A DNA stretch of 5,037 nt from a virus (taxonomy: Duplodnaviria > Heunggongvirae > Uroviricota > Caudoviricetes): IMG/VR virus record IMGVR_UViG_2667527898_000023, one strand, 5' to 3'. The notes below the pieces were generated by a model. That model saw only the letters and a list, made by a program, of their open reading frames with translations. It was not told where the DNA came from and searched no databases. Positions within the stretch are counted from its first letter, which is position 1, and each line of letters begins with the position of its first letter. The position numbers and the translations under genes are program-made. Of the stretch, positions 63 to 5,037 are shown piece after piece.

Positions 63-218
63 TTACTCCTCAGGTTCGTAAGCTGTGAAGACAGCGACCT
101 CCGTCTGGCCGGTTCGGATTCGTACCTCGCAGAGGTCTTTCCTCGTTACCAGTGCCGTCACTATGACGGTTAAACAGATGACGATCAGGGCGATTAACAT
201 CGCCTTTTGCTGCTTCAT
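63..218 (-). CDS. hok: Hok/Gef-family small membrane toxin (51 aa)
   Basis: Translation MKQQKAMLIALIVICLTVIVTALVTRKDLCEVRIRTGQTEVAVFTAYEPEE has the Hok/Gef signature (hydrophobic helix, LTRK.LCE motif, TGQTEVAVF); from memory it is near-identical to E. coli HokD/RelF. ATG at 216-218 (reverse strand). Confidence 0.8.
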   Translation of the reverse strand: MKQQKAMLIALIVICLTVIVTALVTRKDLCEVRIRTGQTEVAVFTAYEPEE

Positions 219-275
219 AGCCTGCTTCTCCTTGCCTTTCGGCACGTAAGAGGCTAACCTACATGTGTTCAGCAT
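63..275 (-). CDS. mok: Mok-like in-frame upstream extension of hok (70 aa reading frame)
   Basis: ORF begins MLNTCR...KEKQAM and continues in frame into Hok; this matches my recollection of chromosomal Mok proteins (MLNTCR... start, Hok fully contained). Function is translational coupling, not an independent protein. Confidence 0.5.
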   Translation of the reverse strand: MLNTCRLASYVPKGKEKQAMKQQKAMLIALIVICLTVIVTALVTRKDLCEVRIRTGQTEVAVFTAYEPEE

Positions 276-455
276 GGATTGAGCCTCAGATTAATGTTAA
301 GCGTCTTGCAGGACGCGTAATGTTAACTGGGGCTTTTCTCTATCTGCCTTTTGGTGTTCATGCCTGAGGCAGATAGCCTCAAGCACCCGCAGCAATTCTA
401 CTTAACTCACGTCACCTCGCCAATATGAAATCAATCAGAAAGGTGATCCATAAAA
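219..455 (-). promoter_or_regulatory. hok mRNA 5' leader region; candidate site of antisense Sok-like RNA on + strand
   Basis: 237-bp non-coding stretch upstream of hok on the coding strand, with a hairpin GCGTC-TTGCAG-GACGC (301-316) flanked by direct TAATGTTAA repeats, and a 9-bp inverted repeat CTATCTGCC/GGCAGATAG (348-376). A weak + strand promoter-like pair TTGCCT(232-237)-17-TAACCT(255-260) could drive an antisense RNA. Structure seen; function inferred from hok/sok paradigm. Confidence 0.3.
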
Positions 456-1142
456 TCACTCCTTCTCTTCTTTTCCGTAGTGGAGTTGGCCAATTTTGAT
501 AAGAGGGCGTCCCTGAGATTTGCGGTGTAGATTGGTATCGCGCAGAGAATACACACAGCCACAATATTCCTGCTGATAGAATTTTTCGCGCTTGCTGATT
601 TCAATCATACGGGACGAGCCGCCCTGCTTGCGCCAGTTATAATCCCAGTATACCATACCCGGATAATGCGCAACAGCTCGCCGCCCACACTCGTTAACCT
701 GCTGCATATTTTTCCAGCGCGAAATGCCCAGTGAACTGCTGATCACACTGAAACCATTTTCAGCAGCGTACAACGCTGTCCGCTCAAAACGCATGTCAAA
801 ACACATGGTACAACGGATCCCCCTCTCAGGCTCCCATTCCATTCCTTTGGCACGTTCAAACCAGTTGTCGGTGTCGTAATCAGCATCGATAAACGGCACG
901 CCGTGTTGTTCAGCAAAGCGAATATTTTCATCCTTACGAATTAAATACTCTTTCTGAGGATGAATGTTCGGGTTGTAGAAAAAGATGGTGTAGTCGATTC
1001 CCGAGGCCTGAAGCGCCTCCATCACTTCACCGGAACATGGAGCACAGCAAGAGTGCAGTAGTAGTTTGTTTGCCCCGTTTGGGAGCTCCAATTTAGGCCG
1101 TTTGAAATCAGCAATAGTCATAAATATTTTTATTGGGGTCAT
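456..1142 (-). CDS. DUF208/QueH-like protein (putative epoxyqueuosine reductase-family Fe-S enzyme), 228 aa
   Basis: Translation contains [14 protein letters not shown] near the N-terminus plus later cysteine pairs ([18 protein letters not shown]), matching my recollection of the QueH (DUF208) cysteine signature. No Shine-Dalgarno before ATG 1142 or the alternative ATG 1121, so the start is uncertain. Confidence 0.55.
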
Positions 1143-1761: not shown

Positions 1762-2844
1762 TTACCCCCTGAAGCCCGGCGGAATTTCGTTATCCGGTTC
1801 AGAAATATGATTCACACAACGCTGGTTGTTCGTGCCGCTTACCGGGAGCAACCAGGGGTTCTCAAAATTCCGGTCCGGTCCAAAAAACGTCGTCGCTCGC
1901 TGAACAAATTCCGTTCCCGTTTTCCCGGTAGCCGCCAAGTATCTTGCGTAACGCCTCACGCCATCCAGCATGGCTTCTGGTGGCACCCCCTCGCGTAATC
2001 TGGCCTTCCAGGCACTGAAAGCGGATTTCTTCGGGTTTGCTCCGGCACGCAACGGGTACTCCCGCCAGACCTGTTCGAACACATCCGGATAATCCACTCG
2101 TCCCACAGACTGCCCGGTGTTTTCCGGGACTACCCGATCGGCTTCCCGCTGAATGGCGGAATCGGCTTCGGGCTGCTGCAGTTGGTGTGATTGCTCCGGC
2201 CTTGCGGTCATCACCTGCTGCACAGCGCCCGAATCGGCTTTCAGCGCATACGCTGAATCGGCTTCCGGTGTCGTGCCTGCTGGCTGACCAAGATTGACGG
2301 TCTGAACATCCCCTGCCTGGTTCGTGGCGTTTTTTACGCCATGGACCATAGTGTTTTGATCTTCTTGATCTGTATCTTTATCTGTATCTTTATCTGTATC
2401 TTTATCTGTCGTGACTCGTCGTGACATGTGCGTGACATTTCGTGACGCGCCGTGACAATCGCCATTTTGTTCCCGCTTTCTTTCCCTCTCTCGCTGCGCC
2501 CTCTTGCGCTCTGCAGGAGATTTTGCGGTTTGCGAAATATTGCCGTTGTCCTCTTTAAGCACCTGGCGTTTTTCCCATCCAGTGATTAAATCACCATCAA
2601 GTACCCGCCCCTGCATCGTCTGCAAAATTGAATCAATTACCTCTTCTGTCACGTCGAGCGCACTTGCCAAATCTTCTGTCGTGACATCAATGTGACCTCG
2701 CGTGACATTTCGTGACGCGCTCACCAGGAGGTGGATATACACTGCCATCACTGTTGCAATTGGCTGCCCTGACACTCTGGCAATTGTTCGCCACTTAGGG
2801 TCATTTGGCATGTCATGCCATAATCTGAGCCAGGCGTTAGCCAT
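1762..2844 (-). CDS. Phage replication initiation protein, YdaU/DUF1376-like, with repeat-rich central linker (360 aa)
   Basis: N-terminus MANAWLRLWHDMPNDPKWRTIARVSGQPIATVMAVYIHLL resembles the DUF1376 N-domain; C-terminus has FEQVWREYPLRAGANPKKSAFSAWKARL...FFGPDRNFENPW, a W/K-rich motif typical of phage replication-organiser proteins. Position (third gene after cro-like and YdaT-like) matches the Rac ydaS-ydaT-ydaU order. Start chosen at ATG 2842-2844 with SD GAGGTGA 2 nt upstream; an in-frame GTG at 2848-2850 is the ORF-track start. Confidence 0.65.
   Translation of the reverse strand: MANAWLRLWHDMPNDPKWRTIARVSGQPIATVMAVYIHLLVSASRNVTRGHIDVTTEDLASALDVTEEVIDSILQTMQGRVLDGDLITGWEKRQVLKEDNGNISQTAKSPAERKRAQRERERKREQNGDCHGASRNVTHMSRRVTTDKDTDKDTDKDTDQEDQNTMVHGVKNATNQAGDVQTVNLGQPAGTTPEADSAYALKADSGAVQQVMTARPEQSHQLQQPEADSAIQREADRVVPENTGQSVGRVDYPDVFEQVWREYPLRAGANPKKSAFSAWKARLREGVPPEAMLDGVRRYARYLAATGKTGTEFVQRATTFFGPDRNFENPWLLPVSGTNNQRCVNHISEPDNEIPPGFRG
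2137..2265. repeat. Four dispersed copies of ATCGGCTT(C/T) at 24/72/24-bp spacing
   Basis: Copies start at 2137, 2161, 2233 and 2257 on the + strand. On the coding strand they give protein repeats (PEADSA..KADSG..PEADSA..READR) in the initiator linker. Confidence 0.8.
2369..2409. repeat. Tandem 12-bp repeat TCTGTATCTTTA x3 plus partial copy (AT-rich)
   Basis: Perfect copies at 2369-2380, 2381-2392, 2393-2404, partial 2405-2409; encodes DKDT repeats on the reverse strand. Two GATC sites (2358-2361, 2367-2370) lie immediately upstream. Confidence 0.9.
2410..2456. repeat. Iteron-like array A: five direct CGTGAC hexamers phased about 10 bp apart
   Basis: CGTGAC at 2410, 2420, 2431, 2441, 2451 (spacings 10, 11, 10, 10 bp, about one helical turn). 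Directly abuts the AT-rich tandem repeat. Confidence 0.85.
2675..2720. repeat. Iteron-like array B: CGTGAC/TGTGAC hexamers at about 10-bp phasing; includes 21-bp perfect copy of array A
   Basis: Hexamers at 2680, 2691 (TGTGAC), 2701, 2711; 2700-2720 is identical to 2430-2450 (GCGTGACATTTCGTGACGCGC), and TCTGTCGTGAC recurs at 2405-2415 and 2675-2685, both exactly 270 bp apart. An inverted GTCACG copy sits at 2648-2653. Confidence 0.85.
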
Positions 2845-2914: not shown

Positions 2915-3340
2915 TCAATGCACTGCCACAGCATTTCCTGCCGGGCCACCACGGTTCATCTGATTGAAACCGGCGATTGCCACTGCGACAAAATCATCAG
3001 CGTCTCTCACCAGTCGCTCCCGCGTCTCCACTAGTTCCCGAAAATAGGCTGAGCTATGACTGCGCATTCGGGCCACCAGCAGAGGTGGCATTGCTTTTTC
3101 GATAGCTGGTAACAACGCCTGAATTTTTTCAACTGCATCAGGGGTGTCTTTCTCTATCCAGCGGAAAATTTTCTGGGTATTGCGAGCCAGGGCTTCCGGA
3201 TGGCTGTCGTCGTACAGTTCAGGAAACGTCATACCCAACTCAAAATAAGCCTGGGTTATTCCAGCTGCCGGAACTTTTTCGCCATCAGGACGCGCCCAGG
3301 CATTCATCGCCATGCGGATGTGTTCATGCTTGATTTTCAT
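2915..3340 (-). CDS. YdaT-like protein (CII-like candidate of Rac-type prophages), 141 aa
   Basis: Starts MKIKHEH, which I recall as the YdaT N-terminus; second gene of the cro-side operon. ATG 3338-3340 has a G-rich SD (AAGGGGGG) upstream and overlaps the end of the cro-like gene by 17 nt. The ORF-track start at 3412 lies inside the cro-like gene and is less likely. Confidence 0.55.
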   Translation of the reverse strand: MKIKHEHIRMAMNAWARPDGEKVPAAGITQAYFELGMTFPELYDDSHPEALARNTQKIFRWIEKDTPDAVEKIQALLPAIEKAMPPLLVARMRSHSSAYFRELVETRERLVRDADDFVAVAIAGFNQMNRGGPAGNAVAVH

Positions 3341-3566
3341 GAATCCCCCCTTGGTTAGAAGGCGGATTATGATCAGAACCGGGAATGACAACCGTCGGTA
3401 TGTGTAACTCATATTTGAGCGCCCCGGCAGTGACTGCCTGAATTAGCAACGCCCATTTCCACGGAACCTCTTCCCCCCACATGCTGACTGTGGTTTTTGA
3501 CGTTCCTAGAGCTGCGGCTGTTTTAACAACTCCGCCAAAATAGCCTAATACTTCTGATTTTTTCAT
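3324..3566 (-). CDS. Cro-like / YdaS-like small HTH regulator (80 aa)
   Basis: First gene of the leftward operon, divergent from the CI-like repressor; contains HTH-like VVKTAAALGTSKTTVSMW. Start at ATG 3564-3566 with SD GGAG 6 nt upstream; the longer ORF-track start (3614) lacks an SD. Confidence 0.65.
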   Translation of the reverse strand: MKKSEVLGYFGGVVKTAAALGTSKTTVSMWGEEVPWKWALLIQAVTAGALKYELHIPTVVIPGSDHNPPSNQGGIHENQA

Positions 3567-3657
3567 GAGTCGCTCCATAAAACTGAACGCCAAAAGTTTA
3601 ATAATCAAAACCAAAGAAAGTCAAGAAACAAAACCATCTGTGTTTTAAAATCAAAAC
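3567..3657. promoter_or_regulatory. Divergent switch region (PR-like and PRM-like promoters, repeated candidate operator motifs)
   Basis: 91-bp AT-rich intergenic region between divergent cro-like and cI-like genes. Three direct CAAAAC(C/A) motifs at 3606, 3629, 3652 (23-bp spacing). Reverse-strand promoter TTGACT (3623..3618) -18- TAAACT (3599..3594). Forward-strand -10-like TAAAAT (3646-3651) placed so transcription would start at or near the cI ATG. Confidence 0.5.
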
Positions 3658-4296
3658 ATGAGCAAGCAAACAATATCTGAACGCATAACCCAACGTATGC
3701 ATGCGCTAAACCTGAAAGGCAAAGACCTTGTCAATGCCACTGGCGCATCAAAAGGCTCCGTAAGTCAATGGATGAACGGTGGAGGAGCGCCGTCCTCGCG
3801 TTACATAAGTTCACTGGCAAAAATATTGAAAGTAAACGAAAATTGGCTTCTTAATGGAGGAGAGTTAAATACAGGTGATTCGCTTGATCTATCTTTACCG
3901 CCGATAAAAACGGTTCCGCTACTATCACTTCAGCAGGCAGCAAGCTGGAGTGATTATATGAAAAATTCCTCAATAACCTCTTGTGTGCAGCTTGTCGGAG
4001 AAATCCCGGCCAATACCTTTGCAGTTGTTCTAGAGAGTGACAGTATGTCAACATCTGGTGGGGGAGTTTCCATCCCAAATGGTTCAACAGTTTTTGTTGA
4101 TCCCGATCGAACCGTACAACCAGGAAATATTGTCCTTGCCTTACCCAAAGGGACCACAACACCTGTCATTCGTAAACTGGAGATAGAAGGGCCGGATATT
4201 CTTTTAGTCCCCACGAATCCTCGCTACCCTTCAATTATGCTGGATGATCTATCTTGCATATTGGGCGTATGCTTTAAAATTCAACAAGATATTTAA
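3658..4296 (+). CDS. CI-like phage repressor: N-terminal HTH (XRE-like) plus C-terminal S24 (LexA-like) peptidase domain, 212 aa
   Basis: N-terminal HTH-like region (GKDLVNATGASKGSVSQWMNG); C-terminal domain has the Ser/Lys dyad context ESDSM (Ser129) and VIRKL (Lys173), 44 residues apart, as in LexA and lambda CI. Divergent from the cro-like gene. No SD before the ATG. Confidence 0.85.
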   Translation: MSKQTISERITQRMHALNLKGKDLVNATGASKGSVSQWMNGGGAPSSRYISSLAKILKVNENWLLNGGELNTGDSLDLSLPPIKTVPLLSLQQAASWSDYMKNSSITSCVQLVGEIPANTFAVVLESDSMSTSGGGVSIPNGSTVFVDPDRTVQPGNIVLALPKGTTTPVIRKLEIEGPDILLVPTNPRYPSIMLDDLSCILGVCFKIQQDI

Positions 4297-4588: not shown

Positions 4589-4744
4589 ATGGATACTATC
4601 GATCTTGGCAACAGCGAATCTCTGGTATGTGGCGTGTTCCCCAACCAGGACGGTACGTTCACCGCGATGACGTATACCAAAAGCAAAACGTTTAAAACCG
4701 AAAATGGTGCCCGTCGCTGGCTGGAAAGAAACTCAGGTGAGTGA
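4589..4744 (+). CDS. Small prophage protein (51 aa), YdaF/DUF1391-like by recollection
   Basis: ATG 4589 preceded by SD GAGG (5-nt spacing); product MDTIDLGNSESLVCGVFPNQDGTFTAMTYTKSKTFKTENGARRWLERNSGE. The longer ORF-track start at 4508 has no SD. I recall a similar small protein next to racR in the Rac prophage, but the name is uncertain. Confidence 0.5.
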   Translation: MDTIDLGNSESLVCGVFPNQDGTFTAMTYTKSKTFKTENGARRWLERNSGE

Positions 4745-4745
4745 T

Positions 4746-4820
4746 ATGGATTTTGACACAATCATGGAAAAGGCTTACGAAGAATACTTCGAAGGCCTTG
4801 CCGAAGGCGAAGAAGCTCAC
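4746..4820 (+). pseudogene. Small prophage gene disrupted by IS1 after codon 25
   Basis: ATG 4746 with SD AGGTGA upstream, 1 nt after the previous stop. Native reading MDFDTIMEKAYEEYFEGLAEGEEAH ends where the IS1 inverted repeat begins (4821); the ORF-track ORF 4704..4901 is a chimera reading into IS1. Confidence 0.5.
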
Positions 4821-5037
4821 GGTAATGACTCCAACTTATTGATAGTGTTTTATGTTCAGATAATGCCCGATGACTTTGTCATGCAGCTCCACCGATTTTG
4901 AGAACGACAGCGACTTCCGTCCCAGCCGTGCCAGGTGCTGCCTCAGATTCAGGTTATGCCGCTCAATTCGCTGCGTATATCGCTTGCTGATTACGTGCAG
5001 CTTTCCCTTCAGGCGGGATTCATACAGCGGCCAGCCA
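4821..5037 (-). mobile_element. IS1 insertion sequence, partial (right end with terminal inverted repeat); continues beyond window
   Basis: 4821-4843 GGTAATGACTCCAACTTATTGAT is the IS1 right inverted repeat; the reverse complement of 4821-5037 matches the 3' terminal about 217 bp of IS1 as I remember it. Confidence 0.93.
4836..5037 (-). CDS. insB: IS1 transposase InsB, C-terminal part (partial, 5' end outside window)
   Basis: Reverse-strand translation ends ...[53 protein letters not shown] with stop TAA at 4836-4838 inside the inverted repeat, as in IS1. Confidence 0.9.

Follow-up and report, generated by a model that had tools for sequence, protein, structure and literature searches.

Where would a lambdoid prophage of Escherichia coli begin its vegetative replication? 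The question is raised by a 5,037-bp stretch of caudoviral DNA (IMG/VR record IMGVR_UViG_2667527898_000023; the window from here on, with all positions counted from its first letter), which is the early region of such a prophage. One minus-strand gene of the window, whose product the Prokaryotic Genome Annotation Pipeline (PGAP) names 'phage replisome organizer', contains two arrays of a short direct repeat at helical pitch, one of them adjoining an AT-rich tract. From the arrangement and conservation of these repeats, we consider it likely that the prophage starts its vegetative replication in this region, at an origin that lies inside its own initiator gene and is built of iterons and an unwinding element. 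An initial annotation of the window had put forward the central idea, namely iterons and an AT-rich element in the linker-coding part of an initiator gene, and this idea survives the comparison with homologues reported below, from which we infer origin activity.

The concept of an origin embedded in an initiator gene is known from textbooks, and the origin of this E. coli prophage type appears to be uncharacterised: in the literature searched (on iterons, replisome organizers, DnaT-like phage proteins and the Eru typing of Stx phages), none is described for this replication module. The module itself is widespread: of 5426 complete E. coli genomes, 1714 (about a third) carry it, relatives are found across the Proteobacteria and among isolated phages of Pseudomonas and Aeromonas, and its C-terminal domain is shared with the Stx-phage replication type Eru4.

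Results

Two phased hexamer arrays lie within one gene

Five direct copies of the hexamer CGTGAC (plus strand; GTCACG on the strand of the gene) begin at positions 2410, 2420, 2431, 2441 and 2451, at spacings of 10, 11, 10 and 10 bp (mean 10.25). This array (array 1; Table 1) lies where the initiator gene encodes the linker and adjoins the AT-rich tract, and we propose it as the main initiator-binding array of the origin. The positions and phasing given in the initial annotation were thus reproduced, as were the three perfect 12-bp AT-rich units and the two GATC sites (2358 and 2367) that it had placed beside the hexamers. CGTGAC occurs nine times in the whole window, every copy falling within 2410-2716, as compared with an expectation of 1.9 (the mean of dinucleotide-preserving shuffles); at least nine copies were seen in none of 200 shuffles.

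The three perfect copies of the 12-bp unit, TCTGTATCTTTA, span positions 2369-2404, and Tandem Repeats Finder delimits a 12-bp repeat of 3.9 copies at 2363-2409 with a 97% match. The GC content of the whole AT-rich tract (2351-2409) is 29%, as compared with 53.5% for the whole gene, and positions 2354-2403 form the 50-nt stretch of lowest GC in the gene.

A second array of four phased hexamers lies 270 bp from the first and has no AT tract adjoining it. It falls within the stretch coding for a loop (amino acids 43-55) that, in an AlphaFold2 model, separates two helices of the initiator's winged-helix domain, and shares with array 1 the 20-nt string CGTGACATTTCGTGACGCGC. We regard it as probably a second initiator-binding array. 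A single hexamer copy in inverted orientation lies nearby; at the equivalent gene position (nt 192), GTGAC is found in most homologues carrying the same hexamer, and this copy is less conserved than the arrays, the third base of the Asp64 codon being C in 13 of 19 homologues. In assigning the element to positions 2351-2460, the initial annotation had rightly joined array 1 to the AT-rich repeat, and those coordinates cover half of a bipartite layout; array 2, the inverted copy and the shared 20-nt string had been overlooked.

Table 1. Positions of the proposed origin elements, the initiator gene and the neighbouring features in the window.
Feature	Position	Strand	Remarks
Array 1, five direct hexamers	2410..2456	-	GTCACG on the gene strand, CGTGAC on the plus strand; 10/11-bp pitch
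AT-rich tract	2351..2409	-	Purine-rich on the gene strand, (GATAAAGATACA)n; candidate DNA unwinding element
Array 2, four phased hexamers	2680..2716	-	Starts at 2680, 2691 (TGTGAC), 2701 and 2711 (CGTGAC at all but 2691)
Inverted hexamer copy	2648..2653	+	GTCACG on the plus strand; 27 bp from array 2
Inverted repeat, 13-bp stem	2318..2348		Just beyond the AT tract; tentatively an accessory element
Initiator gene ('phage replisome organizer')	1762..2844	-	360 aa from the ATG at 2844; GTG at 2850 in the list of open reading frames
N-terminal winged-helix domain	~2566-2835	-	
Linker	~2100-2560	-	Followed by the C-terminal domain
DnaT-like tail	1765-1836	-	
cII/YdaT-like gene	2915-3340	-	
P22-Cro-like gene	3324-3566	-	
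pR-like promoter	3595..3624	-	Candidate upstream of cro; match to consensus in a scan, 9/12
LexA/cI-type repressor gene	3658-4296	+	
DUF977/Ren-like gene		-	
QueH gene	456-1142	-	
hok/sok pair	63-388	-	Hok/Gef open reading frame 63-275 (-); sok antisense RNA 213-388 (-)

Hexamer bases are invariant at positions where the residue varies

A single scan of genomes representing species yielded 55 loci whose products are related to the N-terminal domain, distributed over Gamma-, Beta- and Alphaproteobacteria and a few metagenome bins. In approximately 23 of these, ranging from E. coli to Bordetella, Pseudomonas, Acidovorax and Stenotrophomonas (gene GC 0.42-0.68), the two-array layout recurs at equal gene positions (about nt 128-159 and 386-430), with the same 10/11-bp pitch and the hexamer GTCACG. 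Array 2 was compared among 19 divergent genes showing 64-76% nucleotide identity to the window across the array-2 stretch. Synonymous positions within its hexamers are nearly fixed (top-codon fraction 0.97 vs 0.55; codon entropy 0.15 vs 1.45 bits; p = 1.2e-5, Mann-Whitney), and the third base of the Arg49 codon, which falls between hexamers, varies freely.

An array in the position of array 1 was present in 20 of 20 divergent homologues of the GTCACG class, with three to five copies of which the last three are spaced exactly 10 bp apart. In an alignment anchored on the last hexamer only, GTCAC occurs at -10 in all 20 genes and at -20 in most, with spacer positions at 0.2-1.2 bits. The Ser codon within the -10 hexamer is TCA in 19/19 homologues (14% background), the codon supplying the 5' G of the hexamer specifies eight different amino acids and always ends in G, and the codon supplying its GT is TGT, CGT or GGT. 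Constraint on the bases is therefore seen even at places where the protein sequence can change. Free variation of the hexamers at synonymous positions, which the initial annotation had named as a refuting result, was not found in the homologues, and at the sequence level both arrays are under purifying selection acting on the DNA.

These data bear on the explanation that the repeats are a by-product of a low-complexity, repetitive linker (SRNVT, DKDT) or of replication slippage and have no role in cis. Such an origin of the repeats would fit the fact that the 12-bp unit codes for DKDT repeats, in a copy number that varies among E. coli alleles, and that a 21-bp double unit gives a 7-aa repeat. 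However, the hexamer is read in all three frames within the one gene, yielding CH, SR and VT, and its 10/11-bp pitch cannot be reconciled with a peptide repeat; its bases are constrained independently of the amino acid, and its synonymous sites are frozen across classes of Proteobacteria. Recent transfer of a single DNA cassette is argued against by the variable spacers. We therefore hold a by-product to be barely credible. The same gene also contains a repeat that behaves differently: AGCCGAT (GAAGCCGATTC core) is present in four copies at positions 2143-2269, where it encodes K/E-A-D-S/R in an acidic linker. Since these copies share one codon frame and are spaced by 24, 72 and 24 bp, this is a protein-level repeat, unlike the hexamers; an EADS-like motif also occurs in distant full-length homologues.

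The AT-rich tract is conserved as DNA

The sequence AGATAAAGATAAAGA begins two bases after the last hexamer in all 20 genes of the GTCACG class, at 1.7-2.0 bits per position. Over the 48 nt following array 1, GAT outnumbers GAC by 78:3, as compared with 207:234 elsewhere (p = 2e-19), and AAA outnumbers AAG by 75:8, as compared with 152:146 elsewhere (p = 1e-11). This preference for GAT and AAA persists in genes of 60-68% GC, against the composition of the host. A purine-rich AT tract is found at the same place in the other hexamer classes as well, so that the order array 1, then AT tract, holds in every class. The unwinding element postulated in the initial annotation is thus kept at the DNA level in homologues, a pattern of selection that should be expected of such an element.

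DKDT units vary in number among the alleles of E. coli and Shigella, and indels of 7 aa (21 bp, two iterons) occur in both arrays. One allele (P0019) is devoid of both array 1 and the AT tract and may stem from a replication-dead prophage.

Among 11 blocks of the gene, the inverted repeat just beyond the tract ranks second in stability. A GC-rich palindrome after the AT tract was considered as a conserved third element of the origin, and a first sliding-window test looked positive; it was dropped as a family feature following a block-matched control, in which it was the most stable block in 3 of 40 genes, with 5.1 expected.

The conserved tract also helps in weighing the proposal that the arrays are true sites of the initiator with a regulatory purpose (autorepression, handcuffing or copy control, or a roadblock), the origin lying elsewhere. 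This proposal is strongest for array 2, which lacks an AT tract of its own; the 270 bp between the arrays would permit looping, and at a second site in phage SPP1 the gp38 protein is thought to stall forks (PMC6316719). Array 1, on the other hand, has in all classes an adjoining AT tract whose conservation is at the DNA level, the hallmark of an unwinding element, and the window offered no other candidate for an origin. Tritos, a complete isolated phage of 46 kb, points the same way: 9 of its 25 GTCACG copies lie within 307 bp of the initiator gene and the others are scattered singletons at about chance level, so that Tritos has a single hexamer cluster and no second array in the style of SPP1 oriR. 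We consider a purely regulatory function of the arrays unlikely.

The hexamer changes together with the initiator

In other subfamilies the repeated hexamer is GTAACG or CGAACG/GAACGC, and within each gene both arrays use one hexamer. When the top 5-mer was picked independently for each region, the two arrays agreed in 34 of 52 genes, as compared with a cross-gene rate of 25% that is itself inflated by the large GTCACG class. The hexamer therefore changes in concert between the arrays of a gene, and its class tracks the initiator subfamily rather than the host, as loci of Pseudomonas and of Enterobacterales each include more than one class. It is possible that this concerted evolution proceeds by homogenisation between the arrays.

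The N-terminal domain is encoded at 55/55 loci and is the sole product of a window gene common to all of them; the C-terminal domain was found at 4, DUF977 at 2, cII at 5, Cro at 2 and cI at 1. As only the N-terminal domain is linked to the arrays, the simplest binder is the domain encoded around the sites. A host factor or another phage protein might bind the sites instead, and in favour of this, specificity-determining residues that track the hexamer class were found nowhere outside the iteron-coded loop, and the ACG half is common to the three hexamer classes. Against it, phages whose hosts are related differ in hexamer class, which goes with the initiator subfamily, and none of the neighbouring genes is common across the loci. 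Binding by some protein other than the product of this gene is accordingly a quite improbable reading. A reading of GTGACA as a CRP site was ruled out by eye because the repeats are direct, not inverted.

Three features by which an iteron-type origin is recognised are thereby present in the gene: at least three phased direct repeats (five plus four hexamers at a 10/11-bp pitch), an adjacent AT-rich element kept at the DNA level, and repeats that are conserved beyond the need of the protein and change together with the initiator.

A probable initiator with a predicted winged-helix domain and a DnaT-like tail

The product matches PHROG 3729 ('replication initiation protein') along its full length (E = 4e-256), with residues 3-362 aligned to positions 1-356 of the 356-position profile. 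Its N-terminal part aligns to model positions 1-119 of 121 of Phage_rep_org_N (PF09681) with 15.8 bits, below the cut-off of 23.3 (E = 0.014), and matches TIGR01714 with 15.4 bits, below the cut-off of 49.8. An AlphaFold2 model shows this domain as a winged helix whose fold most resembles the N-terminal domain of DnaD; Foldseek returned nothing significant against the PDB. In comparisons of a 47-sequence profile by hhalign, the probabilities were 0.2% for SPP1 gp38 and 0.4% for TP901-1 ORF13, hence without detectable homology, and no Pfam family of the lambda O type was among the hits up to E = 10. Some GenBank records label the gene 'DNA replication protein O', a label without a supporting match.

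The initial annotation had described the protein as YdaU/DUF1376-like, an assignment that does not hold. DUF1376 (PF07120) gave no match at E <= 0.01 or at E <= 10, where the same tool finds it in E. coli K-12 YdaU at 2.7e-26, and likeness to YdaU by BLASTP is confined to the last 19 residues and the DKDTDKD linker.

The last 24 residues (...VNHISEPDNEIPPGFRG) match the extreme C-terminus of E. coli DnaT and of Rac YdaU. Residues 339-362 align with the DnaT chains 6aep (E = 0.0029), 2ru8 and 9zbt_D (residues 159-179), and the NCBIfam DnaT model is matched at E = 7.8e-4 by the tail only, the remainder of DnaT being unmatched. A paper on the preprimosome describes the C-terminal domain of DnaT as docking onto PriA. 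The tail may be a host-primosome docking peptide common to unrelated phage initiators.

The N-terminal domain also exists in another context: in the metagenomic proteins P0155, P0173, P0186, P0210 and P0233 it is fused directly, with the SRNVTRGH.DVT loop included, to an HNH nuclease domain, which replaces the linker and the C-terminal domain from about residue 110-125 onwards.

Genomic context

Neither in the window nor in Tritos is the initiator gene followed by a P-, DnaC- or DnaB-like gene, and in Tritos it is the only replication gene annotated. One perfect DnaA-box consensus, TTTTACACA, lies on the minus strand at 1702-1710, just downstream of the initiator gene and within the first part of the DUF977 gene; this isolated box may be due to chance.

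Downstream of the replication genes the prophage carries a full-length epoxyqueuosine reductase QueH (Pfam E = 1.1e-65) and a hok/sok toxin-antitoxin pair, the sok RNA matching Rfam RF01794 with 120.5 bits. At the other end, positions ~4819-5037 are a copy of IS1, 99.6% identical to the IS1B present in thousands of plasmids. In most genomes the match to the window stops at about 4818-4820; IS1 therefore interrupts the open reading frame that starts at 4704.

Discussion

How might replication start at such an element? Upon derepression, a transcript of the pR type would produce the initiator and would also pass through the origin, traversing cro and the cII-like gene on its way, and by analogy with lambda this transcription may have an origin-activating role. 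The N-terminal winged-helix domain would then bind GTCACG head-to-tail, one site per helical turn, at array 1 and probably at array 2. The resulting nucleoprotein complex would destabilise the adjoining 59-bp purine-rich AT tract, and the C-terminal domain with its DnaT-like tail would recruit host helicase loading, through either a primosome of the PriA/PriB/DnaT type or DnaB-DnaC. Recruitment of the host loader would explain how the phage manages with no P-, DnaC- or DnaB-like gene. The binding, melting and recruitment steps are drawn from the anatomy of the gene and from the precedents of lambda, SPP1 and the lactococcal phages.

Several observations weigh against placing the origin here. 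Family annotation, fold and synteny are the grounds on which the protein is taken to be an initiator. The predicted recognition helix and wing show no class-specific residues, only the loop encoded by array 2 differing between classes. With so short a core, and with ACG common to the three classes, the shift from one hexamer to another may amount to homogenisation between arrays and not to a true change in specificity. Array 2 could be regulatory instead of a part of the origin. No cluster of DnaA boxes or IHF sites was found near the gene, where matches are isolated and at chance level, and the palindrome beside the AT tract was conserved no more than expected by chance in the block-matched control over 40 homologues. 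Taking these points into account, we still favour an origin embedded in the initiator gene.

Origins of this general kind can be compared with those of iteron plasmids (of the pSC101, R6K, P1, F and RK2 type), which combine phased direct repeats, a winged-helix initiator and an AT-rich unwinding element. Plasmid iterons measure ~17-22 bp and recur at a pitch of ~22 bp at sites external to the rep coding sequence, whereas the units in the window are 10-11 bp long and lie inside the gene. In phage lambda, ori is found at the junction between the DNA-binding N-terminal half of O and the C-terminal half that recruits helicase loading. In both lambda and the window the gene follows cro and a cII-like gene, and in both the iterons are followed, in the same order within the gene, by an AT-rich tract of ~40-60 bp (PMC6022878). 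However, the four iterons of lambda are 18-bp inverted repeats, each occupied by two O proteins (PMC6022878), whereas the window has short, non-palindromic units in direct orientation, which have a core of 6 bp and recur once per helical turn. The window also differs from lambda in having two arrays, one of them inside the region coding for the DNA-binding domain, and in having neither a Pfam match to lambda O nor a P-like gene downstream.

The initial annotation knew of no characterised origin for this family. Origins are in fact known for the functionally analogous replisome-organizer genes of SPP1 (oriL), TP901-1 and Tuc2009 (PMC6316719, PMC8965321), and in these phages, as in lambda, the origin consists of repeats together with a region rich in AT within the initiator gene (PMC6022878, PMC6316719, PMC8965321). 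SPP1 oriL has direct repeats as well as an AT-rich unwinding element inside gene 38, which encodes the origin-binding gp38 (PMC6316719), a protein that is annotated as DnaD-like. SPP1 differs in that another origin lies 13 kb away and that the phage encodes a loader and a helicase of its own (PMC6316719), whereas in the window both arrays are in one gene and there is no loader or helicase gene. In the lactococcal P335-type phages TP901-1 (ORF13) and Tuc2009 (Rep2009), the organizers bind direct repeats in their own genes and these repeats constitute the origin (PMC8965321). ORF13 differs from the initiator of the window in being composed of HTH_36 and DnaB_2, and the 15-bp repeats of TP901-1 are themselves AT-rich, in contrast with the GC-rich hexamers and separate AT tract of the window. 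Judged by its architecture, we regard the element of the window as a functional analogue of lambda ori, SPP1 oriL and the TP901-1 origin, without detectable sequence homology between the initiators.

On the side of YdaU, too, an origin is known: oriJ, in Rac, the prophage that carries ydaU (PMC3945230). Rac shares with the window the gene order (a repressor, a cro-like and a YdaT/cII-like gene, and the replication gene after them), the IPPGFRG tail (the last 19 residues) and the AT tract GATACAGATAAAGATC coding for DKDTDKD, just upstream of which ydaU has short repeats of its own. It differs in its N-terminal domain, which is DUF1376, in the repeat, which is about TGTTCAA, and in the next gene, which encodes the putative ATP-binding protein YdaV. 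In ydaU of E. coli K-12 (L057, 4474-4660), four to five copies of approximately (A/C)AG(A/G)TGTTCAA are followed by AATAAAGATACAGATAAAGATC, C-runs and a G-run. This layout resembles that of the window with a different repeat, and therefore marks a candidate position for oriJ.

A bolder conception, which we rate as doubtful, is that of a self-contained single-gene phage replicon in which the codes of DNA and protein interlock: array 2 would dictate the loop of amino acids 43-55, the loop would help to read the same hexamer, so that site and reader would change in one mutational step, and the mimic of the DnaT tail would take over the host restart primosome with no need of a phage helicase loader.

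A precise prediction of the origin opens the induction and copy-number control of this prophage type to testing. One gene containing its own origin could possibly serve as a compact, two-part vector replicon, and the DnaT-like tail suggests a testable route to the host helicase for phages without a loader gene. The gene also provides a case of overlapping codes, in which the proposed binding sites fix synonymous bases and may even shape a loop of the protein.

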